Positions 1 through 45,800 of a stretch of 46,941 bases of DNA are shown here, one piece after another. Origin of the DNA: a virus. Its lineage: Duplodnaviria; Caudoviricetes. The stretch is from the IMG/VR virus record IMGVR_UViG_3300048586_000076, positions 1 through 46,941 of that record; one strand, given 5' to 3'. Below the pieces are notes generated by a model that worked only from the letters and a program-made list of their open reading frames with translations, did no database searches and was not told the DNA's origin. Within the stretch, counting starts at the first letter, position 1. Every line of letters starts with the position of its first letter. A program made the position numbers and the translations under genes.

Positions 1-127
1 CGAACAATCGATCCCTGAATGAGGGGAAAGACTTTTGGGACAAGTCGCTGCGCGATCCGCGCGAATGGGCGCAGCGGCTGCAGGAAGGTGACGTTTACGT
101 GTGGACGTCAATCCCTGATTGGGTGAC
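1..127. repeat. Terminal direct repeat, left copy (circular assembly overlap)
   Basis: nt 1-127 (cgaacaatcg...gggtgac) are identical to nt 46815-46941, and a CDS reads in frame through the junction. Confidence 0.97.
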
Positions 128-3100
128 GGATACGCTGCGCGGGCTCGGCTATGACGGCATCCGCGACACTGGCGGCAAGGGCGGCGGGCAAGCCCATGAC
201 GTGTGGATACCCTTCGACGAAACACAGGTGAAGGGCCAGTTTAACCGGGGGACGTTTGACCCGGCGAACGCGCGCATTCTGTTCCAGAGCAAGAACCAAG
301 GCAACGCAAAGCCGCGCGGCTCGATCCGGCTTGCACCTGGGCAGACGGTGGTCTCGCTGTTCCAGACGGCGGACCTGTCGACGTTCCTGCACGAAAGCGG
401 GCATTTCTTTCTTGAGGTTTTGAAAGACGTTGCCACGCGATCGAACGCGCCGGCCGGCATTGTGGCGGATTGGAATACGGTTCGGGCCGAACTCGGCATC
501 GGCGACGACGGCGTGATTTCGACCGAAGCGCATGAAAAATTCGCGCGGGGTTTCGAGAAATATCTGATGAGCGGCGAAGCGCCAAGCGAGGCGGCGCGCG
601 GAATGTTCGCTCGCTTCCGGACGTGGCTGCTGTTTATCTATCGCACGGCCAAGAACCTGAACGCGGACGTGTCGCCTGCGCTCAAAGGCGTGTTCGATCG
701 GCTGCTGGCGACCGATGAGGAAATCGCGGCGGCGCGCGGCAACCCCGAATTCCGGCCGGTGTTCGAAACGGCGGAAGCCGCCGGGATGACGCCGGAGGCA
801 TTCGCCGAATATCGCAAGCTTGCCGATGAGGCGGTCGAAACCGCGCGCAACGATTTCATGTCGCGCATGCTCGGCGAAGTGAAGCGCGAAACCTCGCGCG
901 CTTGGCGTGAGGCGAAGGCCCGCGTGCGTGAGGAAGTGGTGCGCGAACTCGCGGCGTCGCCGGTCTATCAGGCCACGGCGTTCATGCGCGACGGCACCAT
1001 GCCCGATGGCTCCAAGGCCGAACGGCTGCAAATGAACCGCGACGATGTGATCGCGGTCTATGGTGAGGGCATCTTGCCGCGCCTTCCGAAATACGTTCCT
1101 CCCATTGTCTCGCGTTCGGAGGGCGTGCACCCCGACGTCATTGCCGGCATGTTCGGCTTTGCGTCGGGGCATGCCATGCTGACCGAATTGATTTCCGCCC
1201 CGCCGCTGGCGATGGCGACGCGCGATCGTGTCAATGAGCGTATGCGCGAACAATTCGGCGACCTGCTGTCGAACCAAGACGCTGCCGCGACTGCGGCTGT
1301 CGAGGCGATGCATAACGACAAGCGCGGCCAGTTTGTCGACGTCGAACTGACGGCGCTTAACAAGAAAGCGGGCATCAACGGTCAGCCGTCGGCGAAGCAA
1401 TTCGCCGCTCGTGCCGCGCGCGAAATGATCGGATCGAAAAAGATACCGGAGGCGACGCGCGTCGGCACCTATCAGGCCAGCGAAGCGAAGGCGGCGCGCG
1501 CGGCCGAACGCGCGATCTTGGATGAGCGCTGGATCGAGGCGACCGAATACAAGCGGCGTCAGTTGTTCAATCACTACCTGGCGCTGGAAGCCCGGCGCGC
1601 GCGCGATGAGGTTGACGCGGCTGTTCGGTACCTGTCGCAATTCACTGGCGGCAAGCGCTCGGCCACGATCGATCCCGACTATCTCGATCAAATCGAGGCG
1701 TTGCTTGAGCGCTTCGATATGCGCCGATCGGTATCGCAGGCGGACGTCGGGCGGCGCAAGTCGCTGGCGCAATTCATTGCGGAACAGGAGGCTGCCGGCA
1801 ATTCGGTCGACATGATCCCTGAGCCGCTTCGCAACGATGCATTCCGCCAGTCCTATAAAGACCTGACGGTTGACGAATTGCGTGGCCTGCGCGACGCGGT
1901 CAAGAATATCGAACACCTGGGCCGGCTCAAAAATAAGATCTTGGTAAAGCGGCGCGAAGCGGAATTCGGCGCGGCCCGCGATGAGATTGTCGCCGGCATC
2001 AACAAGCGGCCGGCGCTGCGGAAGCGATCGACCAATCGCAACCCGACGGCAAAAGAAAAGGCCTATGAAACGCTCGGCGGCCTGCAGGCCTCGCTCATAA
2101 AGATCGAGCAACTTGTTGCCGAATTGGACGACGGCGACGTGAACGGGCCGATGAACCGCCTGATCTTCGAACCTATCAGTGCGGCGCAATCTCGTGAAAA
2201 CGAAATGAATGCGGACATGACGCGCCGCATTGACGAAATTCTCGGGCGCTTCCCGCCCGGCTATCTGCAGGAACGCGTCACGATCGCCGGCTTGCCGGGC
2301 GATAACACGTTCACGCGCGGCGAAATCCTCGTTGTCGCGCTCAACATGGGCACGCAATCGAACCTCGATAAGATGCTCAAGGGCGAAGGCTGGACCGCCG
2401 CAAACCTGCAGGCGATCGTCGGCAACATGAAGGAAACCGATTGGCGCGCGGTGCAGGATATCTTGGACGCGGTCAACTCGCTCTGGCCGGAAATCGCTGC
2501 GGTCGAACGGCGCATGTCCGGCACGGTGCCGCCGAAAGTCGAGGCGCGCGAAATCGAGACGCCGTTCGGCACGTTGCCCGGCGGCTATTTCCCGATGACA
2601 TACGATCCGCGCCGCGCCTTCGATGTGGAGCAACGCGCGGGCGCTGCGCTGTTTGAGGAAGCGAACACGTTCCGGACGCCGTCGACCGAAAAGGGCTTCA
2701 CGAAAGCGCGCGTTGAAGGCTACGCGCGGCCGATCCGTTTCGACCTGGCCGTGCTGCCGGAACATATGTCGAAGGTCATTCACTACATCACGCATCGTGA
2801 AGTGGTGCGCGACGTCAACAAGCTGCTGACGGATGCCGCCGTACAGCAAGCGCTTGAGACGCGCGTCGGCCGAAATATCCGGGGGCTGTTCCGCGACTGG
2901 CTTGCGGACATTGCCAACGGCGACAAGCGGCCCGACACGGCGGAAGCGTGGCAACGGTGGGCGCTGGCGTCGCGGGCGAATATGTCGATCTTCGCGCTCG
3001 GCTTCTCGTTCACGACGGCGTCGGCACAGCTTGTCGGCTTGTCGTCCTCGCAAGCGTATCTGCGCGGGCGCTGGCTTGCGGTCGGGCTCAAGCAATTCGT

Positions 3101-4013
3101 GAGCAACCCGTTCGCCGCGCGCGATTTCGTCTATGCGCGATCCGGCGAAATGAAGCACCGGCAAAGCTCCATGGAAACGGACGTCCGCCGGGCGATCCTG
3201 AAACATACCGATCGGCGCAAGGGCGTCGTCGGCACCGCGCGGTTTCAGGCTGAGAACGCGCGGCGCTTCGCGTTCTACGGCATCGCGTTCATGGATAACA
3301 TGGTCTCGATCCCGACGTGGCTCGGCGGCTATCACAAGCACCTGTCAGAAAACGTCGGCGACGAGGCGGGCGCGCGCGCTGCCGGCGATCGAGCGGTCCG
3401 CCTGACGCAAGGTTCGGGCTATAAGAAAGACTTGGCGCGCGTCCAGCGCAACGATGTGGCGAACCTTCTCAACCCGTTCTATTCGCCATTCTCCGCGCTC
3501 TACAATCAGCTTCGCGACGTCAATCAGGAAGTCCGCGACGCGGACAACAATATCGACCGGGCCTATGCGCTGGCCCGGCTGTGGTGGATGATCGTCGTGC
3601 CGGCGATCCTCGGCGAACTGCTGACGGCCAAGCTGCCCGGCGACGATGATGAGGACGAAACGGCGGCCGGGTGGGCGGCGCGCAAAGTGGCGCTGTATCC
3701 GCTGCAGGCGGTTCCGATCGTCCGATCGTTTGCCGGCGCGCTCGATAACGGCTTCACGGTACAGCTTGACCCGCTGTCCCGATTGTTGGAAACCGGCAAG
3801 AGGCTGGCCCAATCGGTAAAGAACTATGACCGCGACGATGCGCCCCGGAAAATCATCCGCAATACGATCGACCTTGTCGGGCTCGGCGTCGGGCTCCCGG
3901 TCCGGCCGATCAATATCGCGATCAACAATACATGGCGGGCACTATCGGACGGCAATGTTGCGTGGCGCGATCTGATCAAGATGCGCCCTGAGAACGATAA
4001 GGATCGCAAATGA
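3..4013 (+). CDS. C-terminal half of giant internal virion/ejection (large polyvalent) protein, continuing from 42809 across the junction
   Basis: In frame with the ORF starting at ATG 42809. Contains the end of an ART-PolyVal-like domain (LGYDGI...WIPFDETQVK), an HExxH motif (STFLHESGH, 390-404) followed by HEKFARGFEKYL, and a long helical C-terminus. Confidence 0.85.
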   Translation, partial: NNRSLNEGKDFWDKSLRDPREWAQRLQEGDVYVWTSIPDWVTDTLRGLGYDGIRDTGGKGGGQAHDVWIPFDETQVKGQFNRGTFDPANARILFQSKNQGNAKPRGSIRLAPGQTVVSLFQTADLSTFLHESGHFFLEVLKDVATRSNAPAGIVADWNTVRAELGIGDDGVISTEAHEKFARGFEKYLMSGEAPSEAARGMFARFRTWLLFIYRTAKNLNADVSPALKGVFDRLLATDEEIAAARGNPEFRPVFETAEAAGMTPEAFAEYRKLADEAVETARNDFMSRMLGEVKRETSRAWREAKARVREEVVRELAASPVYQATAFMRDGTMPDGSKAERLQMNRDDVIAVYGEGILPRLPKYVPPIVSRSEGVHPDVIAGMFGFASGHAMLTELISAPPLAMATRDRVNERMREQFGDLLSNQDAAATAAVEAMHNDKRGQFVDVELTALNKKAGINGQPSAKQFAARAAREMIGSKKIPEATRVGTYQASEAKAARAAERAILDERWIEATEYKRRQLFNHYLALEARRARDEVDAAVRYLSQFTGGKRSATIDPDYLDQIEALLERFDMRRSVSQADVGRRKSLAQFIAEQEAAGNSVDMIPEPLRNDAFRQSYKDLTVDELRGLRDAVKNIEHLGRLKNKILVKRREAEFGAARDEIVAGINKRPALRKRSTNRNPTAKEKAYETLGGLQASLIKIEQLVAELDDGDVNGPMNRLIFEPISAAQSRENEMNADMTRRIDEILGRFPPGYLQERVTIAGLPGDNTFTRGEILVVALNMGTQSNLDKMLKGEGWTAANLQAIVGNMKETDWRAVQDILDAVNSLWPEIAAVERRMSGTVPPKVEAREIETPFGTLPGGYFPMTYDPRRAFDVEQRAGAALFEEANTFRTPSTEKGFTKARVEGYARPIRFDLAVLPEHMSKVIHYITHREVVRDVNKLLTDAAVQQALETRVGRNIRGLFRDWLADIANGDKRPDTAEAWQRWALASRANMSIFALGFSFTTASAQLVGLSSSQAYLRGRWLAVGLKQFVSNPFAARDFVYARSGEMKHRQSSMETDVRRAILKHTDRRKGVVGTARFQAENARRFAFYGIAFMDNMVSIPTWLGGYHKHLSENVGDEAGARAAGDRAVRLTQGSGYKKDLARVQRNDVANLLNPFYSPFSALYNQLRDVNQEVRDADNNIDRAYALARLWWMIVVPAILGELLTAKLPGDDDEDETAAGWAARKVALYPLQAVPIVRSFAGALDNGFTVQLDPLSRLLETGKRLAQSVKNYDRDDAPRKIIRNTIDLVGLGVGLPVRPINIAINNTWRALSDGNVAWRDLIKMRPENDKDRK

Positions 4014-5584
4014 GCATCGCGTCGACTGCAAGCGTCTCGGCCTGGTACGCCACCAACGGCGCAACCCGCACATGGAATTATGGCTTCAAAATTCCAGCGC
4101 TCGCAAACGTCGTCGTCGACATTCGCGACGATGCGACCGGGCTGGTGACGACGTCGGCTGTAAACATTTCCGGCACCGGGTTCGGGCTGGAAGCCGGCGG
4201 CGTGATCACTTATCCGATCTTGCCGAACGCTGCGCTCGCTGCCGGCTATTCGGTGCGCGTCCGCCGCGTGACGTCGAAACAGCAAACCCTTGTCCTGAAA
4301 AATCAAGCGGCGTGGAACCCGTCCGATATCGAAGGCGCGCTCGATCTGGCGGCCATGCGCGATCAAGAACGCGCGGATGCAATCGCACAGTTGCAGCTTG
4401 ATATCGTCCCGGCCCTGAGCGCTGCGGTCGAAGCGGCGGCGTCGGCCGCGACGGCGACCGCGCAAGCCGGCATCGCGACGACACAGGCCGGCATCGCCAC
4501 CACGCAAGCCGGCATCAGCACCACGAAAGCCGGCGAAGCGAACACGTCCGCCGGCAATGCCTCGTCCTCTGCCTCGGCGGCTGCGGCCTCGGCGGCTGCG
4601 GCGATCGCTGCGCTTGCGGGTATCCGCTTGCTCTTTTCGACGACGACGGCGGACGCTGATCCTGGCAACGGATATGTGCGGCTCGGCAACGCGACGCAAA
4701 ACGCTGCCGTCGTCATGCGCGTCGACCTGCTGGACCGCTTCGGCGTCAACGTCACGTCGATCTTGGATAGCTTGGACGTGTCGACGAACGTATCGAACAA
4801 GGCGATCTTCCGACTGACGGCGGAAGCCGATAGCAACCGCTGGCTTGAATTCCGAATGTCGGCGCGGGCCACGCCGTCGGGCTATCGCAATTTCACGATC
4901 GTCAACACGGGCGGATCGGCGACGTCGCCGCTGGTCAACAACGAGGCGGTGGTCCTGACGTATCGCCTGAGCGGCGACAAGGGAACGGACGGCGCGGGCA
5001 CGGGTGACGTCGTCGGCCCGGCCTCGGCGGTGTCGGGTAATCTCGTGACGTTCAACGGCACGACGGGCAAGCTCGTGCAGGACGGCGGCACGAAAGGCGC
5101 GCTCGCCAACAAGAACACGGTGGCTGCGGCGGACATTGATGCGAACGCCGTGACGACGGTGAAAATCCCTGACGCCAACGTGACCTATGCCAAGCTGACG
5201 AATGTCGCGACGGCTGCGGAATATCGAGCGAACACGGCATCGCGCATTCTGGATACGGCCGGCGTGTGGTCGGCGGCGGCTCCGGTGGCGTTGGCTTATG
5301 GCGCAACCATCACTCCGGATTTTGGCGCGGGCTTCAATTTTGATGTTGGCACCCTGACCGGCTCGCCTTCGCTCGCCAACCCAACGGGTAAGAAGGCCGG
5401 ACAGTGTGGCATATTACGGTTTGTGCAAGACGCTACGGGCTCGCGCGTGGTGTCAGCCGGTTCGGATTATGTAGGCTTCCCGGTTCTGTCGACGGGTGCG
5501 AACGCGATCGACTATGTGAGCTATCATGTAACGACGGCCGGCAAGGTGCTGTGCGCGATGCTCCAAAAGGGGGCGGCGGCATGA
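4010..5584 (+). CDS. Tail fibre protein
   Basis: N-terminal podovirus fibre-attachment-like segment (Y.TNGATRTWNYGF...V.VRRVT...IEGALD), an Ala/Thr-rich coil, a GDVVGPASA..GNL..FNGTTGKLVQDGG motif and a beta-rich C-terminus. Follows the ejection protein with an ATGA overlap. Confidence 0.85.
   Translation: MSIASTASVSAWYATNGATRTWNYGFKIPALANVVVDIRDDATGLVTTSAVNISGTGFGLEAGGVITYPILPNAALAAGYSVRVRRVTSKQQTLVLKNQAAWNPSDIEGALDLAAMRDQERADAIAQLQLDIVPALSAAVEAAASAATATAQAGIATTQAGIATTQAGISTTKAGEANTSAGNASSSASAAAASAAAAIAALAGIRLLFSTTTADADPGNGYVRLGNATQNAAVVMRVDLLDRFGVNVTSILDSLDVSTNVSNKAIFRLTAEADSNRWLEFRMSARATPSGYRNFTIVNTGGSATSPLVNNEAVVLTYRLSGDKGTDGAGTGDVVGPASAVSGNLVTFNGTTGKLVQDGGTKGALANKNTVAAADIDANAVTTVKIPDANVTYAKLTNVATAAEYRANTASRILDTAGVWSAAAPVALAYGATITPDFGAGFNFDVGTLTGSPSLANPTGKKAGQCGILRFVQDATGSRVVSAGSDYVGFPVLSTGANAIDYVSYHVTTAGKVLCAMLQKGAAA
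4458..4540 (+). repeat. 7-aa (21-nt) tandem repeat TTQAGIA in the tail fibre
   Basis: TAQAGIA-TTQAGIA-TTQAGIS-TTKAGEA in the translation. Confidence 0.75.
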
Positions 5585-9220: not shown

Positions 9221-9708
9221 GACGCATCTGCGAAAGCCCTACCTGGGCGTGGCTCTGCGATCGTGGCAACCTGTCGCGCGCGCTGTCGATCGTGGTCATG
9301 GGCTCGCTCGGCGGGTGGGTCGGCTTCAACCTGGCGGACCGCGAACCTCCGATCGCCTATCGATCGATGACGGCGCGGCCGGCGGTGGTGTATCCCGGCG
9401 ACGTGATCCGGATCGAACACAAGGCAATCCGGTTTCGATCCTGTCAGACGCGCGTGATCCGGTACCTATTCGATAGCGCGGGCGGCCGGTACGTTGTCCC
9501 TGACCTCGGCTTTCCCGCGCGGACGCTGCCGATCGGCGACGATGAATTTACGGTGACGCTGCTGGTCGATCCCAAGATGGCGGAAGGGCCGGCGTACTAT
9601 CAGGCGACGCGGCAATACCGCTGCAACTGGACGCATTATTTCTGGCCGATTGAGACTGGCCCGTTCCGTGCGCCGTTCACGGTGGCGCACGGTCGCGATC
9701 CGGGTTAG
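9217..9708 (+). CDS. Single-TM protein with Cys-containing periplasmic domain (holin/antiholin-like candidate)
   Basis: ATGA overlap with the previous gene, N-terminal TM (ALSIVVMGSLGGWVGF), and RSC...YRCNW...WP motif. Last gene of the rightward late operon. Confidence 0.55.
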   Translation: MRRICESPTWAWLCDRGNLSRALSIVVMGSLGGWVGFNLADREPPIAYRSMTARPAVVYPGDVIRIEHKAIRFRSCQTRVIRYLFDSAGGRYVVPDLGFPARTLPIGDDEFTVTLLVDPKMAEGPAYYQATRQYRCNWTHYFWPIETGPFRAPFTVAHGRDPG

Positions 9709-10760: not shown

Positions 10761-10800
10761 CGGGTCGCGCTCCTGTCATGGGGCTTGCGGGTACCCGGAT

Positions 10801-10839
10801 AGAATAGGCCGGCCCATGACGCGCTGTCAAGGGCCGGCC
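10801..10839 (-). promoter_or_regulatory. Leftward sigma70-type promoter embedded in a dyad (possible terminator of the upstream gene)
   Basis: Minus strand TTGACA-N18-TATTCT inside GGCCGGCCC-TTGAC-N5-GTCAT-GGGCCGGCC. Confidence 0.6.
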
Positions 10840-13769: not shown

Positions 13770-14120
13770 TCAAGCCCTCCGCTGATAGGTGGACGGGGCA
13801 AGGCGCTCAACTTGGCCCAATTTAATCAGGCGATCGAGTGTCCCGCTGGCTGTCTTGGCGGCGTACCCGTTCGCCTCAAGCGCCGCGCCAATCTCGGCCA
13901 GCGTGCGCGGCGCGCCGTGCGGAAGCGATGTTAACACGATATCGGTCGGCGTCGGCTCGCCCGGTTTTGGCTTCTTGCGCGCGATAGTCTGGCGCGGCGG
14001 TGCGGCGGGCGTGATCTGCTTGATATCCATGTGCCGGCCTTCGCCGTCCAGCACTTGAATGACAGTCGTCAGTTTGTCGGCCGGGATATCGACCGAAAAT
14101 CGAAACCAAGATTGTGACAT
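13770..14120 (-). CDS. Winged-helix DNA-binding protein (putative)
   Basis: C-terminal TLAEIGAALEANGYAAKTASGTLDRLIKLGQVER pattern. First gene of the leftward recombination operon. Confidence 0.6.
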   Translation of the reverse strand: MSQSWFRFSVDIPADKLTTVIQVLDGEGRHMDIKQITPAAPPRQTIARKKPKPGEPTPTDIVLTSLPHGAPRTLAEIGAALEANGYAAKTASGTLDRLIKLGQVERLAPSTYQRRA

Positions 14121-14161
14121 TGCGCCATTCCTTTCCTGCGTTGCGTCCTGTCAGTCGTCGA

Positions 14162-14204
14162 CAATTAGAGGCGTCTTGACGTGGTGTCAAGGCGGGCCTA
14201 ATAT
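14162..14204. promoter_or_regulatory. Back-to-back divergent promoters sharing a TTGAC-N5-GTCAA dyad
   Basis: Plus strand TTGACG(14176)-N17-TAATAT(14199); minus strand TTGACA(14190)-N17-TAATTG. Divergent genes lie on either side. Confidence 0.7.
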
Positions 14205-14233: not shown

Positions 14234-14542
14234 ATGAGCAATCGGGCCGAAAGAATTACCGCCATGTTTGGCGGCGTGATGGAAATGCATCGCGCGACGG
14301 GGATTGATCCCGCGACAATCTCGCGCTTCGCGGCCGGCGGCAAACGCGGCTATCACGGCATGATCCCGGCGCGGTTCAACAATCGCATCCTTGCCGGCGC
14401 TCGCAAGCGGAAGCTGGACGCAAAGGCGATCCTTGCGAACCTGTCGCCGAACGCTTGCCCGTGCTGCGATCGGCCGCTTGAGCCCGGCCAAGAAATCTCG
14501 AACAGCAAACTGCGCACGGCGATCAAGGCCTATGCCTCTTAA
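14234..14542 (+). CDS. Cro-like HTH protein with a C-terminal CxxC
   Basis: ITAMFGGVMEMHRATGIDPATISRF...GMIPAR Cro-type pattern and CPCC; first gene of the replication operon. Confidence 0.7.
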   Translation: MSNRAERITAMFGGVMEMHRATGIDPATISRFAAGGKRGYHGMIPARFNNRILAGARKRKLDAKAILANLSPNACPCCDRPLEPGQEISNSKLRTAIKAYAS

Positions 14543-15980: not shown

Positions 15981-16373
15981 GTGTCTGAGCAAGCGCTATC
16001 AAAGCAAATCCTGCTGCGCGCGTCCGCCCTGGGCGCGCGCCTGTTCCGGCAAAACACTGGCGTCGGGTGGGCGGGCAACGCGGAAATCAAATCCAAGGCC
16101 GGCGTGACGACGGTGATCATTCGCGACGCGCGTCCGCTTCGCGCCGGGCTCTGCAAAGGATCGTCGGACCTGATCGGCTGGACGCCCGTCACGATCACGC
16201 CGGACATGGTCGGCAAGACGGTGGCGGTGTTCACGGCGGTCGAGGTCAAGACTGACGGCGTGGTGATGACGCCTGAGCAATCGAATTTTCTGCAGCAAGT
16301 CCGCTCTGCCGGCGGGCACGGTATCGAGGCGCGCGACGTCGCGCATGTCGAATGGCTCAAAGCCTGGCCCTGA
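15981..16373 (+). CDS. VRR-NUC-like nuclease
   Basis: RLFRQNTG, GSSDLIG, AVEVKT and PEQ.NFL..V..AGG motifs. Confidence 0.85.
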   Translation: MSEQALSKQILLRASALGARLFRQNTGVGWAGNAEIKSKAGVTTVIIRDARPLRAGLCKGSSDLIGWTPVTITPDMVGKTVAVFTAVEVKTDGVVMTPEQSNFLQQVRSAGGHGIEARDVAHVEWLKAWP

Positions 16374-16412
16374 AAAGCGAACCGCCCGCTGGCCGGGAGG
16401 TCAACGGGCGGT
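16374..16412. terminator. Hairpin between convergent operons (probable, possibly bidirectional, terminator)
   Basis: ACCGCCCG(16381-16388)...CGGGCGGT(16405-16412), followed by TCGCTTTT on the minus strand. Confidence 0.7.
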
Positions 16413-16444
16413 CACTGACAGGAAACGCGCAGGAATGAGCGCAA
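16374..16444 (-). ncRNA. Candidate ~70-nt trans-acting small RNA complementary to early-gene RBS motifs
   Basis: Upstream TTGACG-N17-TAAATA. The 5' single-stranded segment CAUUCCUGCGCGUUUCCUGUCAGU is complementary to five leaders, followed by a GC hairpin and UCGCUUUU. Confidence 0.55.
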
Positions 16445-16448
16445 CCCG

Positions 16449-16477
16449 TATTTATTGCGTCATGGCGCGTGCGTCAA
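16449..16477 (-). promoter_or_regulatory. Leftward promoter candidate with no downstream CDS
   Basis: TTGACG(16477-16472)-N17-TAAATA(16454-16449), immediately after the primase stop. Confidence 0.5.
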
Positions 16478-16482
16478 GGGCG

Positions 16483-19023
16483 TCACTCGTCGCCCTCCTT
16501 TTTGCGAACGTAGGCATTGCGCGGCGGCTGCCCTAGCTCAAGCCGTACCTTCTTCTTGATCCATCCCATACGATACAGGCTCTCGGCGACACGCTTCTGA
16601 GCAAGGTTGTTGTGCTGATAGACCGGAAGGCCGATCGCGTCGCGCAACACTTGGGCGGCTGTGACCTGTTCCAGCGGCCGAACATAGCGCTCGATCGCGT
16701 CCTCCCATGGCTCCATTTCGGTGCGATCGGACTGAACCTCGCGCGCGGCCTGTTCTTCTTCCTCGGTAAGCCACCATTGCTCGCCCTTCAAAAACAGGTG
16801 CATCGCCTCGGCCCATAGCTGATCGCGATCCTGCTCGATGCCGGCAACGTCGAGGTCTTTCACGGTGACGGGCCAAAAGCGCCGGCCTCCGGTGGCGTCC
16901 TTCAAATAGCCGGTCCCGTTCGGGTTCACGGTGCCGGCGAAAATGAAGTGGCGCGGGAAATCCTCGGACGCCTTCGCATACGGCCGGCGAAGCGTGTCGG
17001 TCGTGCGTGTCATCCAAGCCTTAATGCTGTTCGCCTTGTGTCTGTCGAGCATGTCCATTTCCGCATGCTCAATAATCCAAGCGCGCTGCATATTCAGGAC
17101 GCTGTCCTTGTCCTCAATGTTGCCAACGCTATCGGAAAAAAACTGCCTACCGCCTACGTTCGCCAGCGTCTTGAATATCAGCGATTTCCGCCGGCCCTGC
17201 GGCCCTTCCAAGATGAGCATGTTATCGACCTTGCAACCTGGCTGCATCGCGCGGGCGCAAGCGGCGATTAACCAGCGCATGCCGAACGCGCGATTGATCG
17301 GCGTGTTGTCGGCCCCGAGATATTCGGAAAGCCACGGCTGCAAATCCTCGCCGGCCACGCGGCCTCCGCGAACGCGCGGAATGCCGTCCCATTTCAGGCT
17401 TTTGAGATAGTCGACCAGTGGGTTGAAACTCTTATCGCGGCACGCGACCAGAACGGCTAGGCCGGTATCGTTCGGCTTCGGTGATAGGCCGTGGCGCTCA
17501 AGGTAGGCCGTGCAGGAAATATAATCTTCCTCGGACATTTCGCGGACCTTCCAATCGTTCACGCCGGGGCGCTCCCATGGCGGCCGGAACAGGAGATAAA
17601 TCCGCTTGTCGAAAGTGTTGTAACCAAAGATGCCGCGAAGCTGCGGATCGAACCGACAATAAAGGATCATGTTCGCGAACGCGCGCGGCCTGATCGCGCC
17701 TTCGCCATTGAACAGCAGGCGGCCCTTCCAATTCGCGGCCTCGTCGTCGTCGTCGGTCCCCTCGGGGATTGCCGCGCCATGGATCGCCACGACGTTGCCG
17801 GCCTTCTCGCGCGCCGGCTTCGCTGGCTTGCTTTTCGCCTTCTCTGCGGTGTCGGGCTTCGCCTGCTCGATCGGCTTCGCCTGTTCTACCGGGTCGGTTT
17901 TGCGGGTACCCGCCTTCGGCTCGGGCTCGCTGTACGTCTCGGCTTTGCGGGTCTCGATATCCTGCAGGGTGATCGGCCGGACCCACTCCCGCATGAAGGC
18001 CAAGACGTGATCGGCGTCCAGTTTGTCGATCTGGATCGCGTCGGCGACGTCCCATCCTTTCGGCTTCCGATCGGCACCTGGGGGTGTGATGTATTTCGCC
18101 CGCTTCAAGCCGGCGGCGAACGCAAGCTCAATGATGCCGGGTCGCCACTGGCCGGACGGCGTCCAGTAGCCAAGCATGGTCCGGACACCTTCATCGTCGT
18201 TGTCCGGCCAGAACACGGCGGCGTCGCCAAGCTCGCTCCAATCGGTCTTAGCGTATGCCTTGCCGCCGCCGGCCCAAGACAAGGCGGCCATTTGCTTAAT
18301 GCCAAGGGCGTTGAATTCGTCGGCGCATTTCTCGCCTTCGACGACAAGCCTCTGTCGGTGGGCCTTGTCGCCGCCGATCTGCTCAAGCCCGTAAAGCCGG
18401 CGCGGCTCTGGCAATGATCCGTGCGACCAGCCTTCGAAACCCGTGTCCTTGTTCTTGGCCCATAGGATAGCCGGCGTGATCTTGCGATCCTCGTCGACGT
18501 CGACGCGCAAGACGTAGTGGCGCAACGTCCCGTCGGGCGCTCGGTAGGCGTGAACGCGCGACGGCGTGTAGCGGATCGAGGCGGGCTTGCCGTCCTTGTC
18601 GAGGCGCTTCGGGTTTAGGAGCGGCGGTGTCTGCTCGCCGGGCTCGATCGCGGGCGCGTCTGCCGGCGGCATCTTCGCGCGATAGCCGGCATAGGGGTCG
18701 ATCGTCTCGGCTGGCGGCGCGACCGATCGACCGGTGTCGACCTCGCGTTTACCGCCAAGGATTTCGCAAGCGCCTGTGAAGTCGACGCCCTGATGCTGCT
18801 GTACGAATTCGACGACGTCGCCCTGCGCGCCGCATCCGAAACAGTGGAATTTCTGGAAGCCGTCCCGCGATGGGTAAACGGTGAACGATGGCGTATTCTC
18901 GCCATGCAACGGGCAACAGGCTTTCCACTCCCGCCCGTCACGCTGCAGCGTCACGCCGAACTTGCGCGGCAAAATCTCGGACAGCGGGTTGTCCCGCTTT
19001 ATGTCGCTGATGTTGTATTTCAT
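16483..19023 (-). CDS. DNA primase-helicase (CHC2 Zn finger + TOPRIM + VirE/VapE-type ATPase)
   Basis: CCPLHGENTPSF...FHCFGCGAQGD, VVEGEKCAD...WPDNDDEG, GWDVAD, LEGPQGRRKS and YLKDATGGRRFWPV motifs. ATG 19023 preferred as start. Confidence 0.9.
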   Translation of the reverse strand: MKYNISDIKRDNPLSEILPRKFGVTLQRDGREWKACCPLHGENTPSFTVYPSRDGFQKFHCFGCGAQGDVVEFVQQHQGVDFTGACEILGGKREVDTGRSVAPPAETIDPYAGYRAKMPPADAPAIEPGEQTPPLLNPKRLDKDGKPASIRYTPSRVHAYRAPDGTLRHYVLRVDVDEDRKITPAILWAKNKDTGFEGWSHGSLPEPRRLYGLEQIGGDKAHRQRLVVEGEKCADEFNALGIKQMAALSWAGGGKAYAKTDWSELGDAAVFWPDNDDEGVRTMLGYWTPSGQWRPGIIELAFAAGLKRAKYITPPGADRKPKGWDVADAIQIDKLDADHVLAFMREWVRPITLQDIETRKAETYSEPEPKAGTRKTDPVEQAKPIEQAKPDTAEKAKSKPAKPAREKAGNVVAIHGAAIPEGTDDDDEAANWKGRLLFNGEGAIRPRAFANMILYCRFDPQLRGIFGYNTFDKRIYLLFRPPWERPGVNDWKVREMSEEDYISCTAYLERHGLSPKPNDTGLAVLVACRDKSFNPLVDYLKSLKWDGIPRVRGGRVAGEDLQPWLSEYLGADNTPINRAFGMRWLIAACARAMQPGCKVDNMLILEGPQGRRKSLIFKTLANVGGRQFFSDSVGNIEDKDSVLNMQRAWIIEHAEMDMLDRHKANSIKAWMTRTTDTLRRPYAKASEDFPRHFIFAGTVNPNGTGYLKDATGGRRFWPVTVKDLDVAGIEQDRDQLWAEAMHLFLKGEQWWLTEEEEQAAREVQSDRTEMEPWEDAIERYVRPLEQVTAAQVLRDAIGLPVYQHNNLAQKRVAESLYRMGWIKKKVRLELGQPPRNAYVRKKEGDE

Positions 19024-19088
19024 TCCCGGTCCTGTCGGGGACAACGTAACGAGATTTTGCCGCGCGTAAAAGCCGCTAGGGCTAGTGG

Positions 19089-19475
19089 TTATTGCTCGGT
19101 CGGCTCTACAAGGTGAACCTTCTTGCCCTTGTGCCATAGCTCATGGGCCTTATTGAAAAGCACGCAACCGATGGCGTCGACCTGATCCGCCTGAATGTGC
19201 GACATAAGGATCGTGCCGACTAGGTTCACGATATAAAGCGGCAAGGCGTGGATCGCCTCGGCGCGCGCTTTGTCGGTGTCGAGCTTGCCGGCGACTGCAT
19301 CCTCAAGCGCCGCCAAAACAATCGGCAGGGTTTTCATCATTGCAAGCTCAACCGGGTTGCGGGTGAAGCCCTGCGCCTCGGACTGTGCCATAAGAAATTC
19401 CTGGCGCGCCTTGTTGTCGGCATAGGACTGCAGAAAGCGCTCGCTCAATTCCAGCGTAATCGTTTCCTGTTTCAT
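19089..19475 (-). CDS. Hypothetical protein
   Basis: AGGAGA RBS and tight packing in the leftward operon. Confidence 0.7.
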   Translation of the reverse strand: MKQETITLELSERFLQSYADNKARQEFLMAQSEAQGFTRNPVELAMMKTLPIVLAALEDAVAGKLDTDKARAEAIHALPLYIVNLVGTILMSHIQADQVDAIGCVLFNKAHELWHKGKKVHLVEPTEQ

Positions 19476-21350: not shown

Positions 21351-21378
21351 CTGCAGTCCTTTCCTGTCACGGTCCGCA

Positions 21379-21408
21379 TCAATACCGCGATTGTTGACAC
21401 CGCGTCAA
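21379..21408 (-). promoter_or_regulatory. Leftward early promoter within a TTGAC-N5-GTCAA dyad
   Basis: TTGACG(21408)-N18-TATTGA; the dyad TTGACACCGCGTCAA spans 21394-21408. Confidence 0.55.
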
Positions 21409-22943: not shown

Positions 22944-23027
22944 GGGTACCCGTCGCCGGGTACCCGACACCGTCGAATTTCCGGCGCAATGCGCGCGCGT
23001 CATGTTGCTGACAGGAAAGGAAGCGCG

Positions 23028-40077: not shown

Positions 40078-42809
40078 TGGCTGTCATAGTCCCCCGCGTA
40101 TTCAACCCCACTGTCGACGTCCAGCCGCTTCCGGGTACCCGGCTATCGGCGGAAGGCATGAACGCGGACGCGTTCGGCGCAAGCATGGGTCGGGCGCTGC
40201 AGCAGTTTGGCGTCGGCCTGGGCGACGTCGCGCAAGTCTCGGCCAAGCTGTACGAGGAACAGCAGGCGCAGAATGCGCTCAAGTGGTTTAACGATGCGGC
40301 GGCCCAAGCGCGCAAAAAAATGTACGACGACGACGACGCGATTATGAAGCGGTCCGGATCGCAGGCCATGGGCGCGTCGAAAGAGTGGGACGATTGGGCG
40401 CTCGCGACCGGTGAGAATGCCAAGCGGACGCTGGTCGACCAATACGGCCGGCGCGCGGGCGAGGCGTTTGAAAAGCTGTGGTCGTCACACTCGCGATCGC
40501 TCGGCGACGCGACGGCGCGGTATGAGTTGCAGCAGCGCAAAGGCTTCCGCGACGAAACCGAGAAAGGCCTGATCGCCACGGCGGCGGCGGACGCGGCGAA
40601 CAACTATCTCGATCCGGAATTTGTCGAGCGCTCGATCGGCACGGTGCGCCGCGCGATCCTCGCGAACGCTGCCGGCGATCCTCCTGAAATGGTCGAGGCG
40701 AAGCTGCGGCAAGCGTCGAGCGCTGTGCATTCCGGTATCGTCCAGCGCATGGCGGTAAGCGATCCGATCAAGGCCATGGAGTATTACAAGGCGAACGCCA
40801 ATAGCTTCGACGGCGGCGATCATGTGAAAATCCAGAAGCTTCTTGAAGTCCCGTATGAGCGCGCGCAAGCGAATGAGTACGTTCGCCAGCGGACGTCTAT
40901 CAGCGCGCCCGCGCGGGCGCTCGGCGTCGTGACGGAAAATCTGGAAACGCCTACAGGTACCAAGCTGACGACGGAATTGTTGCAAACGTCGCTGCAGCGG
41001 TACGAGGGCGATATTCCTGCGGCGGTGGTCGCGGCGACACATGGCGACGACGCGGCGACGAAATGGCTCGCGTCCGGCCGCGACTATGCCGCGATCCCTG
41101 ACGGCGACAAGACAAAGGCATTCGTCGAAACGGTGCAAGGCCGGTACGGCGATCGGGCCGGCGGCAACAAACCGCTTGATCCGCCAATCTCGCCGGCTGC
41201 GGAAATCCGCATGGGTGGGCTCCCGCCTGCCGGCCAACGAATGACGCGCGATAATTGGTCGCTGTCATTCTACAAGCCGCAAGACATGCTGCCGCCAAAC
41301 GACGCGAACGTGTTTGTCGACGCGCGCGCGGCGAAGATGGCGGATGAACTCGGTCGCCGGTTTTTTGAGGAAACCGGAAAGCGGGTCGGCATCAATGACG
41401 ACGCAAAGGCGAACGTGCCGACACCGTTCGGTGTCAGCATTTCATCGCAGGGCCGGCGTCGCGGGGCTCGCGATCCGGAGGACAATCCGGGCGCGCCGGG
41501 CTCGCAGCATACGCAGGGGCGCGCGTTCGATTTCCAAGTGCAAAACCTGACCGACGACGAAAAGAAGCGGTTTCTTTCGATGGCGAAAGAACTCGGTTTT
41601 ACGGGCATCGGTTACTATGAAGGCAAGGGCGGGCATCTGCATCTTGATACGGGCGCGGCGCGATCGTGGGGCACCGCGCCGGCATGGGCTCAAGCGGCGG
41701 ACGCGTCCGCGCCGCGCCTGGCGCAGACTGCGGTCAACCCGCAAAAATTCGATCTGGAAGCCGAACTTGCGGAAGCGGATGCAAGGTTCGGCGATCGGCC
41801 GGACGTGCTGACGCGCGTGCGCCAAGGCCTGATCGTCGAGGCTAACCGCCGCGACCGGATCGAGAAACAGCGCGATCAAGAAGTGCTGAAAGGCGCATGG
41901 TCGCATGTAGCGAAGGGCGGCTCGATCGCGGACATGCCGCCGGAAATGGTGACGAACCTTTACACGCGCGCGCCGCAAGCTGTGCCGGCCATGGAACGGT
42001 TTGAGGAACGGCGGTCGAAAGGCCAGAAGATTGAAACCGATTATGCTGTCTATGCGCGCGTCGCCGCTATGGATGACGACGGCGTTCGCAAGACGACGGT
42101 CGAGGAATTGATCCCGTATCTCGGCCCGACGGAATTGAAAGAGTTTGCCAAGCGCAAGGCCGATATCGACAAGGCTGATCGAGGCTTTGCCAGCGGCGAC
42201 GTCGCCGGTACGCAGACGCGCAACGAAATTGTCCGGTCCGCCATTGCCGGCTCTGACTTCGCCAAGATGGAAGGCAAGCCGGAGAACGCCAAGCGCGCCG
42301 GCATGCTGCAGGCTCGCGTCGATCAATTCATCACGTCATTCGCACAAGCGAATAAGCGCGCGCCGCGATCGGATGAAATCCGCGCGGAAGTCGACCGGCT
42401 GATGACGCCTACAAGCATCGATCGGCCCAACATCGGGACTGGCAATTATTATGCGTTCGAACTCGGGTCGGCGTCCGACAATGCGGTGAAGCGCGGCATT
42501 GGCGAAAAGGTCGAGGCGGACAAATTCACGCCTGTCGCCAAGCTGACGGAAGTCCCGCCGGCCGATCTGGTCTTTCTCAAGGACGCCTATACGCGCGAAC
42601 GCGGGCAGTTGCCGAAAGAAGATAAGGCGGTCGAGCTATACAATGCGGCTCGGCGCGCGCAAATCGGCGGCCTGAGCGATCCCCCGCCGGAGGATCGTCG
42701 GGAAATCGTCTCGGCTCTGACCAAAAAATATGGTCGCGCCCCGACGGCTACTGAGATACAGCGGGCGTACAGCGCGCATGTCCTGCGCTATCTGCCAAGG
42801 GGCTATTGA
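40077..42809 (+). CDS. Internal virion/ejection protein with an M15-type peptidase domain
   Basis: GAPGSQHTQGRAFD...GFTGIG.Y...HLHLD Zn-peptidase motif within a helical scaffold. Confidence 0.82.
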   Translation: MAVIVPRVFNPTVDVQPLPGTRLSAEGMNADAFGASMGRALQQFGVGLGDVAQVSAKLYEEQQAQNALKWFNDAAAQARKKMYDDDDAIMKRSGSQAMGASKEWDDWALATGENAKRTLVDQYGRRAGEAFEKLWSSHSRSLGDATARYELQQRKGFRDETEKGLIATAAADAANNYLDPEFVERSIGTVRRAILANAAGDPPEMVEAKLRQASSAVHSGIVQRMAVSDPIKAMEYYKANANSFDGGDHVKIQKLLEVPYERAQANEYVRQRTSISAPARALGVVTENLETPTGTKLTTELLQTSLQRYEGDIPAAVVAATHGDDAATKWLASGRDYAAIPDGDKTKAFVETVQGRYGDRAGGNKPLDPPISPAAEIRMGGLPPAGQRMTRDNWSLSFYKPQDMLPPNDANVFVDARAAKMADELGRRFFEETGKRVGINDDAKANVPTPFGVSISSQGRRRGARDPEDNPGAPGSQHTQGRAFDFQVQNLTDDEKKRFLSMAKELGFTGIGYYEGKGGHLHLDTGAARSWGTAPAWAQAADASAPRLAQTAVNPQKFDLEAELAEADARFGDRPDVLTRVRQGLIVEANRRDRIEKQRDQEVLKGAWSHVAKGGSIADMPPEMVTNLYTRAPQAVPAMERFEERRSKGQKIETDYAVYARVAAMDDDGVRKTTVEELIPYLGPTELKEFAKRKADIDKADRGFASGDVAGTQTRNEIVRSAIAGSDFAKMEGKPENAKRAGMLQARVDQFITSFAQANKRAPRSDEIRAEVDRLMTPTSIDRPNIGTGNYYAFELGSASDNAVKRGIGEKVEADKFTPVAKLTEVPPADLVFLKDAYTRERGQLPKEDKAVELYNAARRAQIGGLSDPPPEDRREIVSALTKKYGRAPTATEIQRAYSAHVLRYLPRGY

Positions 42810-45800
42810 TGGGCGTCTATGATTACCTGGCCGATCCGGCTTCGCCTGAGCCGGACGGCTTCGACGGCGTGACGCAAGCGCCCAAGCCCGACATGGGCCT
42901 GACGGACGCAAACCCTTACGACGCGATCGCCACGGAAATGGCAAATGAGGAAACGGCGCGCGTCGATCAAGCCCTGAAAGTCGCCGGCCGCATCGATCCT
43001 GAGCGCTATATCGACGCGCAACGGGTGGCGTTCAACGTCGGCGTGCCACTCGATCAAGCCCTGAACGATAACGACGGCGAACTCGCGCGCGCGCAACGCG
43101 TCGCTGAGACGCGGAAAATCCTGGAGGGCAATCCGAAGCTGGCCGAATGGTTCGCTGAAAAGGACAACGGGAACGTCGTCAAATTCGATGAACTGAAAAA
43201 GCTGGACGGCGTCTCGTGGTTGACGTCGGCGGCCGGCGCGGCGTGGAAAGAAGGCAAGCGCGACGTCCGCCTGAATTCGCTGCGGTGGGCGCAAATGAAC
43301 GGCGAAGCGACGCCGGAAATGATCGCCGAAGCGAACAAGCTGAATGAGGAACAGCTTGCGGAAGGCAAGCGCACATTCGGCGCGGACGGCATTCTCGATG
43401 AGGCTTGGACGCTGGCCGTGCAGCAGTTGCCGAATATGGCATACACGATAACGGAAACGATCAAGGGCGGCCTCGGCGGGGCCACGGCCGGCGCGGCTGC
43501 CGGCGCTCTGATTGGCGATGAGGCTGGCGCGATCACGGGCGCGGCGCTCGCGGCTCCGGTCGGCGCGGTTTACAAGGGCTTCATGGCGTCGGCTGCTCTG
43601 GAAGGCGGCGCGGCCTATAACGAATTCCTCAATTTCAAAAACAGCGACGGCACCGGTATCGATGAGCCTGTCGCCCGTCGTGCCGCGCAAGTCGTCGGCC
43701 TGGTCAACGGCTCGCTGGAATTGGTCGGCTTGAAATATACGGTCGGGCTTATCCCCGGCGTCGATCGCCTGTTCCGCTCGGCCGTGCGTGAGGGCGTGGC
43801 GGAAGCGATCAAGGATCGGACGGTGCAGCGTGCGCTCGTCGGGCTCGGCGCGAACGTGGCGAAGTCTGTCGCTGTGGAGACCGGCACCGAAGGCCTGCAG
43901 GAATTTGCCCCGGCGATCGGCGGCGAACTCGTGAAAGCGCTCGGTGGCAAGGACGTCGAACGCGCGTCGCTCGGCGACATTGCCGGTCGCGTGCGCGATG
44001 CGATGGTCGACACGGCCAAGGCGCAAATCATCCTCGGGCCGTTGTATGCCTCGCCGCGTTTCGTTCGCGATATCCAAATGGCACGGCGCGCGTCGCGGGT
44101 CGAGCAATCCGTCCGCGATCTGATTGAGAATGCCAAGGATAATTCGGCGCTCATTGATCGCAGTCCGGACCGGGCAAAAGAAGCGATCGACAAGCTGACC
44201 GAAGCTGGCGGCTCTTTCGATCGGATATTCATCCCGGCGGAACAGGCGCGCGAATTGTTCCAGTCGCATCCTGAGCTTGAGCAAGCTATGCCCGGCTTCA
44301 CGGCGCGGCTCGCGGAAAGCACCGCGACCGGCGGCGATTTCGAAATGTCGACGTCGGAATTCTACGCCCACCTGGCGCGGACCGAACTTGCGGAAGCGAT
44401 CTTGCCGAACATGCGGCTGTCGCCGGATGGCGTCACAATCTCGCAAGCGCGCAAGTTTAACGAAGCGGTGCAAGAGGTTCGTCAGTCGATGTTCGATATG
44501 GACGTCGAAGCGCTGCGGGCCGAACGGGAGAAGATGGGGCCGGAGGCGCGCGTTTATGATTTCGTGCGCGAACAATCGATCCGCACGGGAAACTCTCCGA
44601 CGGTCGCGAATGATCACGCGAATATGTATCAGTTTTTTTTCGGCACGCTGGCGAAGCGATGGGGCGACGGAGAGGACGCCTTTTCGATGTTCGCGCCCTA
44701 CGGCTTCCGCATGCAGCGCGAAATGCCGGACGCCGTCCCGTATCAGAAGCGGACCGAATTCGACCTGGTGCTAGATGCGATCCGCGCCGGCAAGTCCGGC
44801 CAAGCCGAACTGGCGGTCCAGCGTGCGAAAGGGCCGACACTCGGCGAATGGCTGAAACGCCGCGGCGGCATCGTCGGCGATGAAACGGCGTCCGAACTGA
44901 CGTCGGCCGGAATGCAGCAATACATTGCGCGCGTCGATCCCAAGACGGGCCGCGTGGTGAGCGGGCGCGCGCGACGCGAACGGCTGCAGGCGCTTGCGAA
45001 CTATCAGATTGACGGCACGATACAGGCGGCGCGGGAGGAAGGCTTTTTCGATGACCTCGGGCCGGACGCTGAAATCGGCCTGAATGAATTCATGGAAGCG
45101 CTGTCACGCGATACTTATTCGCCGCGTCTCGCGTCCGAACCGCAATCGTTCCTGGCGTCGATCGCGCAAACGACGGACATGCTCGCCGAACTCGGCATCG
45201 ATATCAGTGCCGACAATGAAACGATCCGCGCGCAAATTGCGGCGGCTGCCGCCGGTCAGCCGCAAGAGGGCGATCTATTCCAGTTTGCCGGGCAATTCGC
45301 GTTCGGGCTCAACAATGCAAAGCTGACTGAGGCGCGGGCGATGGACCTGCGCGGTGAGCTTGCCGGCGATATCTTCGACCAGACTGGATTTTTCAAAGGC
45401 GCTGATGGCGCGTGGCGTTTCGAGATTGCCGACAATGAGGCGTCGTTCGCCGCACAGTGGGAAATGCTTGAGACGGGCAAGGACTACAAACTGAGCATGC
45501 TGCTCAAGCATGACAAGCTGTTTGCGGCCTATCCGTCGCTGCGAGAAATCACGGTCGAAGTCGACAACGGAATGCTGCTCGGCCGGGCTAATGGCACGTT
45601 CTATCCGGACAAAAGCCATATCGCCCTGAGCCAAAAGCTTCCGAAAGACAAAGCGCTGTCGACGCTGCTGCATGAAATCGCCCATGCAATCCAGTCGATC
45701 GAGGGGTTTGCGCCGGGCGGCAACACGTCGATGGGCGAACTCTATGAGGGTGAGCGCGTCGAATATCACAAGGCGCGAGCGGCCAAGCTGACTGCGGAAT

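Follow-up and report, generated by a model that had tools for sequence, protein, structure and literature searches.

What is encoded in the short gap between the convergent VRR-NUC and primase genes of this phage? The initial annotation proposed a small RNA complementary to the ribosome-binding sites of several early genes. Our comparative analysis identifies a conserved candidate small RNA gene and gives strong evidence that it controls early leaders of the same phage by antisense pairing. An RNA with such complementarity would likely turn these genes off, in viruses without the usual repressor protein.

The window, i.e. the whole stretch of 46,941 nucleotides analysed here, is a complete virus record flanked by direct terminal repeats, and its G+C content is 61%. 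Judged by its portal, capsid, tail and internal virion proteins, the phage is a BPP-1/epsilon15-like podovirus (its portal protein is 40–41% identical to the epsilon15 and BPP-1 portals). No near DNA relative was found in the phage collection and no exact 19-nt match in viral contigs, and the closest proteins from cultured phages are less than 50% identical to those of the window. A cultured member of the clade was not found, because the three cultured phages checked (Persinger, phiRSP and KLEP18-1) carry helicase and primase on one strand rather than convergently. The host is presumably an alphaproteobacterium: sister prophages occur in Mesorhizobium, Aminobacter and Pleomorphomonas records. 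One contig with the gene cassette described below (L164) is filed under a gammaproteobacterial MAG. At the far end of the window, no clear gene was called over ∼4 kb (42809–46941) before the record end, and a 1304-aa frame at the record start (1–4013) adjoins this stretch; the two probably form one long virion gene spanning the terminal repeat.

The early region consists of leftward genes (a 116-aa gene, a RecE-like exonuclease and RecT), rightward genes (Cro-like, helicase and VRR-NUC) and a primase-helicase that converges from the right:

13770–14120, minus strand: first leftward gene, 116 aa, with a C-terminal part that a low-confidence model (pTM 0.41) renders as winged-helix-like
13766–12921, minus strand: RecE-like exonuclease, directly after the 116-aa gene
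12915–11941, minus strand: RecT, after the exonuclease
14234–14542, plus strand: Cro-like helix-turn-helix (HTH) protein, candidate binder of the promoter palindromes discussed below
15981–16373, plus strand: VRR-NUC gene, the end gene of the convergent cro–helicase unit
16483–19023, minus strand: primase-helicase with a CHC2 zinc finger and a VapE-like domain, starting at ATG 19023

The putative small RNA gene lies between the last two of these, its promoter beginning 5 nt past the primase-helicase stop:

16449–16477, minus strand: predicted sigma70-type promoter of the small RNA, TTGACG-N17-TAAATA (−35 box TTGACG at 16477–16472, 17-nt spacer, −10 box TAAATA at 16454–16449)
16373–16442, minus strand: predicted ∼70-nt small RNA, its ends placed from the promoter and terminator
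16416–16442, minus strand: seed region of ∼27 nt, with a core (16425–16416) predicted to be single-stranded
16373–16415, minus strand: terminator-like hairpin (16415–16377) and T run (16376–16373), abutting the VRR-NUC stop codon

There is no minus-strand ATG inside the predicted RNA. The predicted fold comprises one strong hairpin and a weak 4-bp one and leaves the seed as a linear stretch, with an unpaired probability of about 0.9 in its core. For the 42-nt hairpin region the folding energy is −27.8 kcal/mol (z −5.6), a value that 0 of 200 shuffles equalled. A rule combining promoter, seed, hairpin and T run gives three matches in the window, the two others lying inside structural genes. An E. 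coli-type consensus scan omits the promoter because it has no T at the sixth −10 position, and omits the terminator because the T run is short. Just 5 of 14 cassette promoters have a T at that position, which agrees with the 30–43% given for alphaproteobacterial promoters in PMC7703639. At the Rfam gathering score, zero families matched in the window or in four related loci; at E up to 10, the matches were Hrs13 (17.7 of 52 bits), Atu_C4 (13.5 of 80 bits; a Rhizobiales sRNA model) and sR14.

The initial annotation also raised a rival plus-strand open reading frame at ATG 16435, translated with the motif as its own leader; this 33-aa frame was rejected, as it is not conserved. A further suggestion, that the CCUCCC at the hairpin apex acts as an anti-Shine-Dalgarno sequence, found no support in the window. 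The apex is partly paired in the predicted fold, leaving a 4-nt loop, and its matches to window leaders are at background (2 versus 1.4), so that a second seed there is unsupported. Over 14 genomes, terminator loop regions gave 50 leader matches versus 24; 21 of the 50 come from L084 and L088, in which the matched words are common Shine-Dalgarno contexts. The loop regions of L244, L102, L252 and L326 also match their own leaders (that of the window does not): the L102 loop has a 9-nt match to its own leftward leader, and the L244 loop matches CCGCATGA across three start codons. Just beyond the small RNA promoter, a terminator-like hairpin with a T run lies on the plus strand (16477–16502). The cro–helicase–VRR-NUC transcript might traverse the RNA gene up to this point and so make a full-length antisense copy that could titrate the RNA.

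The predicted targets in the window are as follows:

14120–14155, minus strand: main predicted target, the leader of the first leftward gene (start 14120), matched in three sequence blocks
21360–21369, minus strand: predicted target, the leader of gene 21350, with a perfect 10-nt run
10771–10778, minus strand: predicted target, the leader of gene 10760, with an 8-nt run and its class supported in six phages
19021–19036, minus strand: predicted target, the leader and start codon of the primase-helicase, with a 7-nt run and a second block
23008–23018, plus strand: possible target, the leader of gene 23028 downstream of the small terminase, with a 10-nt run using the defined seed

We located TCCTGTCA at 10771, 14146 and 21362 (and also at 9439, outside any leader), TGACAGGA at 23009, TCCTGTC at 19030, TTCCTGCG at 14133 and CATTCCT at 14126. 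Each of these five target sites is oriented antisense to the minus-strand RNA, and the promoter and motif coordinates and the orientation reported in the initial annotation thus agree with the sequence throughout. The words are concentrated in the window's own leaders: TGACAGGA occurs in 4 and GACAGGA in 5 of its 58 called leaders, whereas among 606 leaders from 13 related phages the counts are 1 and 7, respectively. Seven matches of at least 8 nt to the seed occur in the window, where foreign seeds yield ∼2.4 by chance.

The five leaders had been expected to rank top for pairing with the RNA, which was borne out for one of them. The 14120 leader ranks first of 58 (−36.2 kcal/mol, with 0 of 500 seed shuffles as good; net ensemble binding −23.8 kcal/mol), and its pairing would span about −34 to −1, the Shine-Dalgarno sequence included. 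By duplex energy, 10760, 23028 and 21350 rank third, fourth and sixth, and primase falls outside the top four; net binding is −10.7 to −12.7 kcal/mol for the four targets other than the stronger 14120. Gene 21350 is the first gene after an operator-bearing promoter upstream of the primase gene cluster, and the leader of its L324 homologue matches the seed of L324 itself over 9 nt. For gene 23028, which may not be an early gene, no homologue was found among the fetched related loci listed, and the evidence comes from within the window genome. A 10-nt seed match also occurs on the minus strand at 19461–19470, at codons 2–5 of the gene just upstream of primase (19475–19089). Its energy rank is 50 of 58, and it is possibly a sixth target or a chance match.

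We then compared the locus among relatives. In 18 distinct genomes, the primase operon is succeeded by a promoter box, a variable stretch of 23–48 nt, a GC hairpin (−22 to −29 kcal/mol) and a T run. These genomes are the window, L001, L017, L084, L085, L086, L088, L102, L112, L164, L244, L252, L286, L324, L326, L433, L444 and L445. Twelve of these cassettes were found by rule among 75 ranked loci, all distant, that came from VRR-NUC and primase searches; those of L164 and L084 were spotted by eye (the L084 −35 box is TTGTTT), and that of L112 was completed from the opposite end of its circular record. All four genomes fetched afterwards (L433, L445 and L444 among them) contain the cassette, which in L444 sits behind one further gene and has a weak T tail. 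L437 carries the L286 seed and the two are counted as one, and L434 and L443 repeat L252 and L244, respectively. The cassette occurs also where VRR-NUC is not adjacent, and was not found in eight other convergent loci. The small gene upstream of it in relatives is highly variable and was unusable as a search query.

In an alignment of 15 cassettes, the conserved parts are the −35 box and the hairpin only. Within the stem, 87.9% of cells are paired and 10 of 11 pairs have double changes (0 of 500 shuffles as good; 37–50% paired in slid-structure controls), although the structure was named from the same alignment, which biases this covariation test in its favour. On the primase tree, the cassette genomes need two label changes. 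L096 and L098, in which no cassette was found, fall in the same weakly resolved part of the tree as cassette genomes, on a long unresolved branch. A single origin of the cassette is compatible with this tree. Outside the clade, L362 has a promoter–hairpin–T cassette about 1073 nt after a primase-like gene. L220 has a separate element on its plus strand (4845–4960) consisting of a promoter, an anti-Shine-Dalgarno stretch, a hairpin and a T run. It lies between the leftward promoter and the CI-like gene, in sister prophages that carry CI and integrase, and a similar stretch is present in L223 and perhaps in L090 and L246.

Because the cassette is always on the same strand behind the primase operon, the regulator could instead be the primase-operon mRNA, acting through its 3′ end either within the full transcript or as an excised piece, which would feed back on primase and leave a minor role to the internal promoter. 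Its hairpin is a likely terminator of that operon, and in several relatives the −35 box lies inside the last codons of the upstream gene. Yet a TTG..-N16–18-TA.. box precedes the seed in all 18 genomes, whether the context is coding or non-coding, and we regard this explanation as improbable.

Evidence for trans-acting pairing comes from the leaders themselves. Over leaders of 55 nt, raw duplex energy mainly reflects G+C content and ranks non-targets high, and we therefore relied on contrasts between cognate and foreign seeds; gene starts came from a simple purpose-written caller, so that the leader sets contain errors. The seeds of 12 compared phages share at most 8 nt pairwise, save those of L252 and L326. 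In a 12 × 12 matrix of first leftward leaders (−40 to +15; chosen by position after some matches had been seen, with two start codons set by hand), own seeds average −31.2 kcal/mol versus −21.4 kcal/mol for foreign ones. This contrast was reached in 0 of 200,000 permutations, and again in none when the close relatives L326 and L085 were left out. The longest complementary run averages 8.2 nt for own and 5.5 nt for foreign seeds, and the own leftward leader is the best one for 8 of the 12 seeds. L001 is an exception: its seed ranks 7 of 12 on its own leftward leader (67 of 500 shuffles as good) and has its best sites at other leaders.

Other leader classes behave similarly. For primase leaders of nine phages (9 of 15 seeds, as the start-finding pattern missed six genomes), the run test was equalled in 83 and the energy test in 563 of 100,000 permutations, and three of the nine phages have no clear match. 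For gene-10760 leaders in six phages, the respective counts are 52 and 542 of 20,000. Exonuclease leaders (n = 9, overlapping with the leftward set) also favour their own seed. By contrast, capsid, tail, large terminase, RecT, VRR-NUC and helicase leaders have no own-seed preference, and portal leaders give at best a nominal preference, confined to runs (778 of 20,000); none of these seven control classes gives a convincing signal. The leader targets claimed in the initial annotation thus hold up in part: the leftward, primase and 10760 classes recur in relatives, although the window's primase run is a short 7 nt, and for 23028 the evidence comes from the window. The broader claim that several leaders are antisense in trans to one RNA is upheld, since relatives keep the layout and their seeds differ yet match their own leaders.

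Counts over whole leader sets point the same way. In 14 genomes, 66 leaders have a run of at least 8 nt with their own seed versus 22.0 expected from foreign seeds, with no excess in L252 (0 versus 2.2), L326 (3 versus 2.6) and L102 (1 versus 0.8). Among 664 leaders, 9-mers antisense to the RNA number 32 versus 4 same-sense ones, a ratio inflated because seeds are pyrimidine-rich and leaders purine-rich. Each phage tends to have its own regulon word: GACGGGA in four leaders of L001, including primase; AGCTACCACA in three of L084; GCAAGCC in five of L164; CTGCCAG in four of L244; and CCCTGCCA in three of L324 (the leftward gene and the homologues of 21350 and 10760). A second seed segment was noticed in L244 (CCGGTGAA-type, in four leaders) and in L324 (CCGATGAAAG, in two leaders), which suggests that one RNA may serve two regulons in these phages. 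Of the held-out genomes, L445 carries the word CCTGCCA in three leaders (leftward, primase and 10760-type), which make up 3 of its 5 non-self sites, and L444 has the same word directly before a start codon between cro and the exonuclease. For three held-out leftward leaders, the own seed ranks second of 17 after normalization (raw fourth, third and third) and never first. The leftward leader of L437 has GGTACG with its complement in the seed, and those of L252, L326 and L433 have GGGAAC with matching seeds.

These contrasts bear on two further explanations. One is that the gap holds an ordinary terminator of convergent genes, with matches that reflect chance pyrimidine/purine pairing or a decayed plus-strand gene start at ATG 16435. 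Its promoter is indeed missed by the E. coli-type scan, and some 8-nt matches are expected by chance. But anti-Shine-Dalgarno content is controlled for in the contrasts between own and foreign seeds, which largely refute this account and leave it with hardly any probability. In addition, the seed complement lacks an opposite-strand ATG in 10 of 14 cassettes (the remaining four give unrelated frames), and the cassette is found away from VRR-NUC. The other is that the shared words bind a phage protein on DNA or RNA, or that pairing activates or stabilizes the mRNA. It could draw on the GGA contained in the window motifs, on their position near promoters in three cases, on their TGACA beginning, which resembles a palindrome half-site, and on those matches that lie upstream of the Shine-Dalgarno sequence rather than on it. 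A protein site is nevertheless hard to reconcile with motifs that differ wholly between phages, always mirror the seed, favour the mRNA strand (32 versus 4) and follow start codons, internal ones included (primase and exonuclease). Pairing at 14120 would, moreover, cover the Shine-Dalgarno sequence. We consider it quite unlikely.

The predicted target units also share a promoter feature:

14176–14190: TTGAC-N5-GTCAA palindrome forming the back-to-back −35 boxes of the leftward and rightward promoters, a likely operator
21394–21408: second perfect palindrome, at the promoter of the 21350 unit
10816–10830: third palindrome, with one mismatch, at the promoter of the 10760 unit

Each of these three palindromes (at most one mismatch) thus lies at the promoter of a predicted target unit, and 0.03 perfect copies are expected per shuffled window. 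Of 14 genomes examined, nine have a perfect palindrome at their leftward promoter. The −35 region of the RNA itself has three to five mismatches to it in 12 of 14 cassettes. The window Cro-like protein has Atlas leads of 0.83–0.85, under 0.9, to P22_Cro/YdaS clusters; its L001 and L017 homologues match P22_Cro/YdaS below the cut-off, and the window protein has no such Pfam match.

Gene content sets the clade apart from its sisters. No tyrosine integrase, resolvase or homologue of the sister-type CI-like protein was found in the 11 virus records of the clade, eight of which are at least 90% complete; this agrees with the earlier view of a phage lacking a recognizable CI repressor. An HTH_3 match is present in two of the 11 records, one of them at the cro position, and a ParA-like gene in one. 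In the sister clade, where primase lies in tandem, integrase and a CI-like gene are present in 5 of 5 records, and an HTH gene of ∼205 aa lies opposite cro in 15 of 15 loci (HTH_3 above the cut-off in 5 of 6 tested, with no peptidase domain listed). The rule that picked out twelve of the cassettes found none after primase in the sister-clade loci. This contrast between CI and RNA is one clade against another, a single event rather than a repeated one. The one ParA-like gene is in G001, the complete circular record of L001 (G001:C1:18080–19080, minus strand), and the L001 seed has its top match in the leader of the preceding gene, which hints at a plasmid-like state in this member.

How does the candidate RNA relate to known phage RNAs? 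By analogy, it appears to work like P1 C4 and P4 CI and to belong to neither family; the likeness in logic only that had been noted earlier is borne out by the lack of an Rfam match and by a different fold and target layout. According to PMC5320573, the C4 RNA of P1/P7 is likewise ∼70–80 nt long and acts in trans, base-pairing with phage leaders so that a ribosome-binding site is occluded, and owes its specificity to a variable part. It differs in having three stem-loops, being cut by RNase P from a precursor, pairing through two loops and serving temperate immunity. The window RNA has instead one terminator hairpin, a linear 5′ seed, its own promoter and several dispersed targets, and matches neither the Rfam covariance models nor the arrangement of three stem-loops with a′/b′ loops. 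In P4, too, an RNA rather than a protein holds replication genes off by pairing with the early transcript; according to PMC4825925, CI RNA is processed from the transcript that it controls, pairs with the flanking seqA/seqC and causes premature termination. The window RNA, unlike P4 CI, has targets 2–7 kb away in separate units; they do not flank the RNA in its own transcript, lying in other units or far upstream.

Cis-antisense RNAs offer a second comparison. The sar and OOP RNAs overlap their target genes. In the window, only the T run overlaps the VRR-NUC stop, the VRR-NUC and helicase leaders have no cognate preference, and complementarity to several leaders is short and interrupted. P22 sar, lambda OOP and aQ are also short RNAs with their own promoters that lower the expression of phage regulatory genes, although each is described with a single target and a cis action is proposed for aQ (PMC12197685). 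PreS (lambda), VpdS (VP882) and 24B_1 are phage-encoded as well. According to the same source, all three belong to temperate phages: the target of PreS is the host gene dnaN, VpdS is a competitor for Hfq, and for 24B_1 an action on d_ant is proposed. The accessible part of this source describes none of these six RNAs as a multi-leader regulon in a non-integrating phage, nor own early leaders that covary with a seed across a clade. For virulent Pseudomonas phages, the text available from PMC10914365 reports candidate non-coding RNAs and gives no targets. Six contig ids have no occurrence in the searchable part of the PMC10690425 supplements (10,006 candidate viral RNAs), and we found no description of the cassette in open-access literature text; a preprint on arbitrium (10.1101/2025.11.23.689978) concerns, in its accessible part, protein antirepressors and has no bearing on the cassette.

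The sequence features agree with the general class of trans-acting base-pairing sRNAs. A promoter, a non-coding body and an intrinsic terminator are present by sequence and conservation in 18 genomes, together with an accessible seed that covaries with several translation-start regions. The seed-plus-terminator build of the window RNA is the general anatomy of Hfq-type sRNAs.

Taken together, we are highly confident that a pairing RNA exists, and we moderately favour a model in which a trans-acting antisense RNA and the Cro-like protein shut off the early units of a non-integrating phage. Layout, conservation, seed–leader covariation and gene content form its observed basis, from which we infer transcription, pairing in the cell and repression; the timing is drawn from gene content alone. 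In this model, (i) host sigma70 polymerase would transcribe the RNA from the moment of entry, and read-through of the primase operon would add to the supply; (ii) as the RNA accumulates, its seed would pair over ribosome-binding sites and shut off translation, preventing 30S subunits from loading on the primase gene and on the genes that head the leftward recombination, 21350 and 10760 units; (iii) the block on a first gene may be polar on the remaining genes of its unit; and (iv) the Cro-like protein, acting on transcription, and the RNA, acting on translation, would jointly end the early phase, since palindrome promoters head three target units and the promoter of the RNA itself mostly lacks the palindrome. 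Genes for recombination and replication would thus be closed down with a delay. Since the predicted duplexes cover or directly adjoin the Shine-Dalgarno sequence and start codon, repression is the most probable effect, and polarity is possible because pairing at 14120 would start among the first bases of the transcript predicted there.

The main rival keeps the same RNA and pairing and makes immunity the main job: the early units would be held off in a non-integrated carrier or plasmid-like state, or a second phage of like kind would be blocked, and immunity groups would be defined by the seed instead of by CI. We give this a low probability, although it has several points in its favour. Seeds vary from phage to phage in the manner of immunity determinants, the CI-like gene located opposite cro in all 15 sister loci is missing from the clade, the promoter of the RNA mostly escapes the palindrome, G001 joins a complete circular genome and a ParA-like gene to an adjacent leader that is the top match of the seed, and the C4 and CI RNAs serve immunity (PMC5320573 and PMC4825925). 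Against it stand the absence of integrase and resolvase from all 11 records, the single ParA-like gene among them, and the fact that the contrast between CI and RNA is one clade-against-clade event. Of the two roles first suggested, immunity or an early-to-late switch, early shut-off thus fits better than classical prophage immunity, given that 11 of 11 records lack an integrase and a CI-like gene. The two are mutually compatible. A bolder version, which we hold to be rather unlikely, is that a single reprogrammable RNA replaced CI as the master early off-switch, its fast-changing seed setting groups of superinfection exclusion or carrier immunity.

Known phage antisense RNAs mostly act on one neighbouring gene in temperate phages, or on host targets. 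If early shut-off by this RNA is true, these viruses would have a multi-target RNA regulon inside the phage's own programme, without an integrase or CI-like gene. Structure-based screens would see such RNAs as mere terminators, because the functional part is not conserved. The many seeds, each mirrored in its own targets, amount to natural compensatory variation that would make the regulon testable with plain reporters and no phage culture, and would provide a natural panel of largely orthogonal seed–leader pairs. They would also show a regulator and several of its targets changing sequence together.
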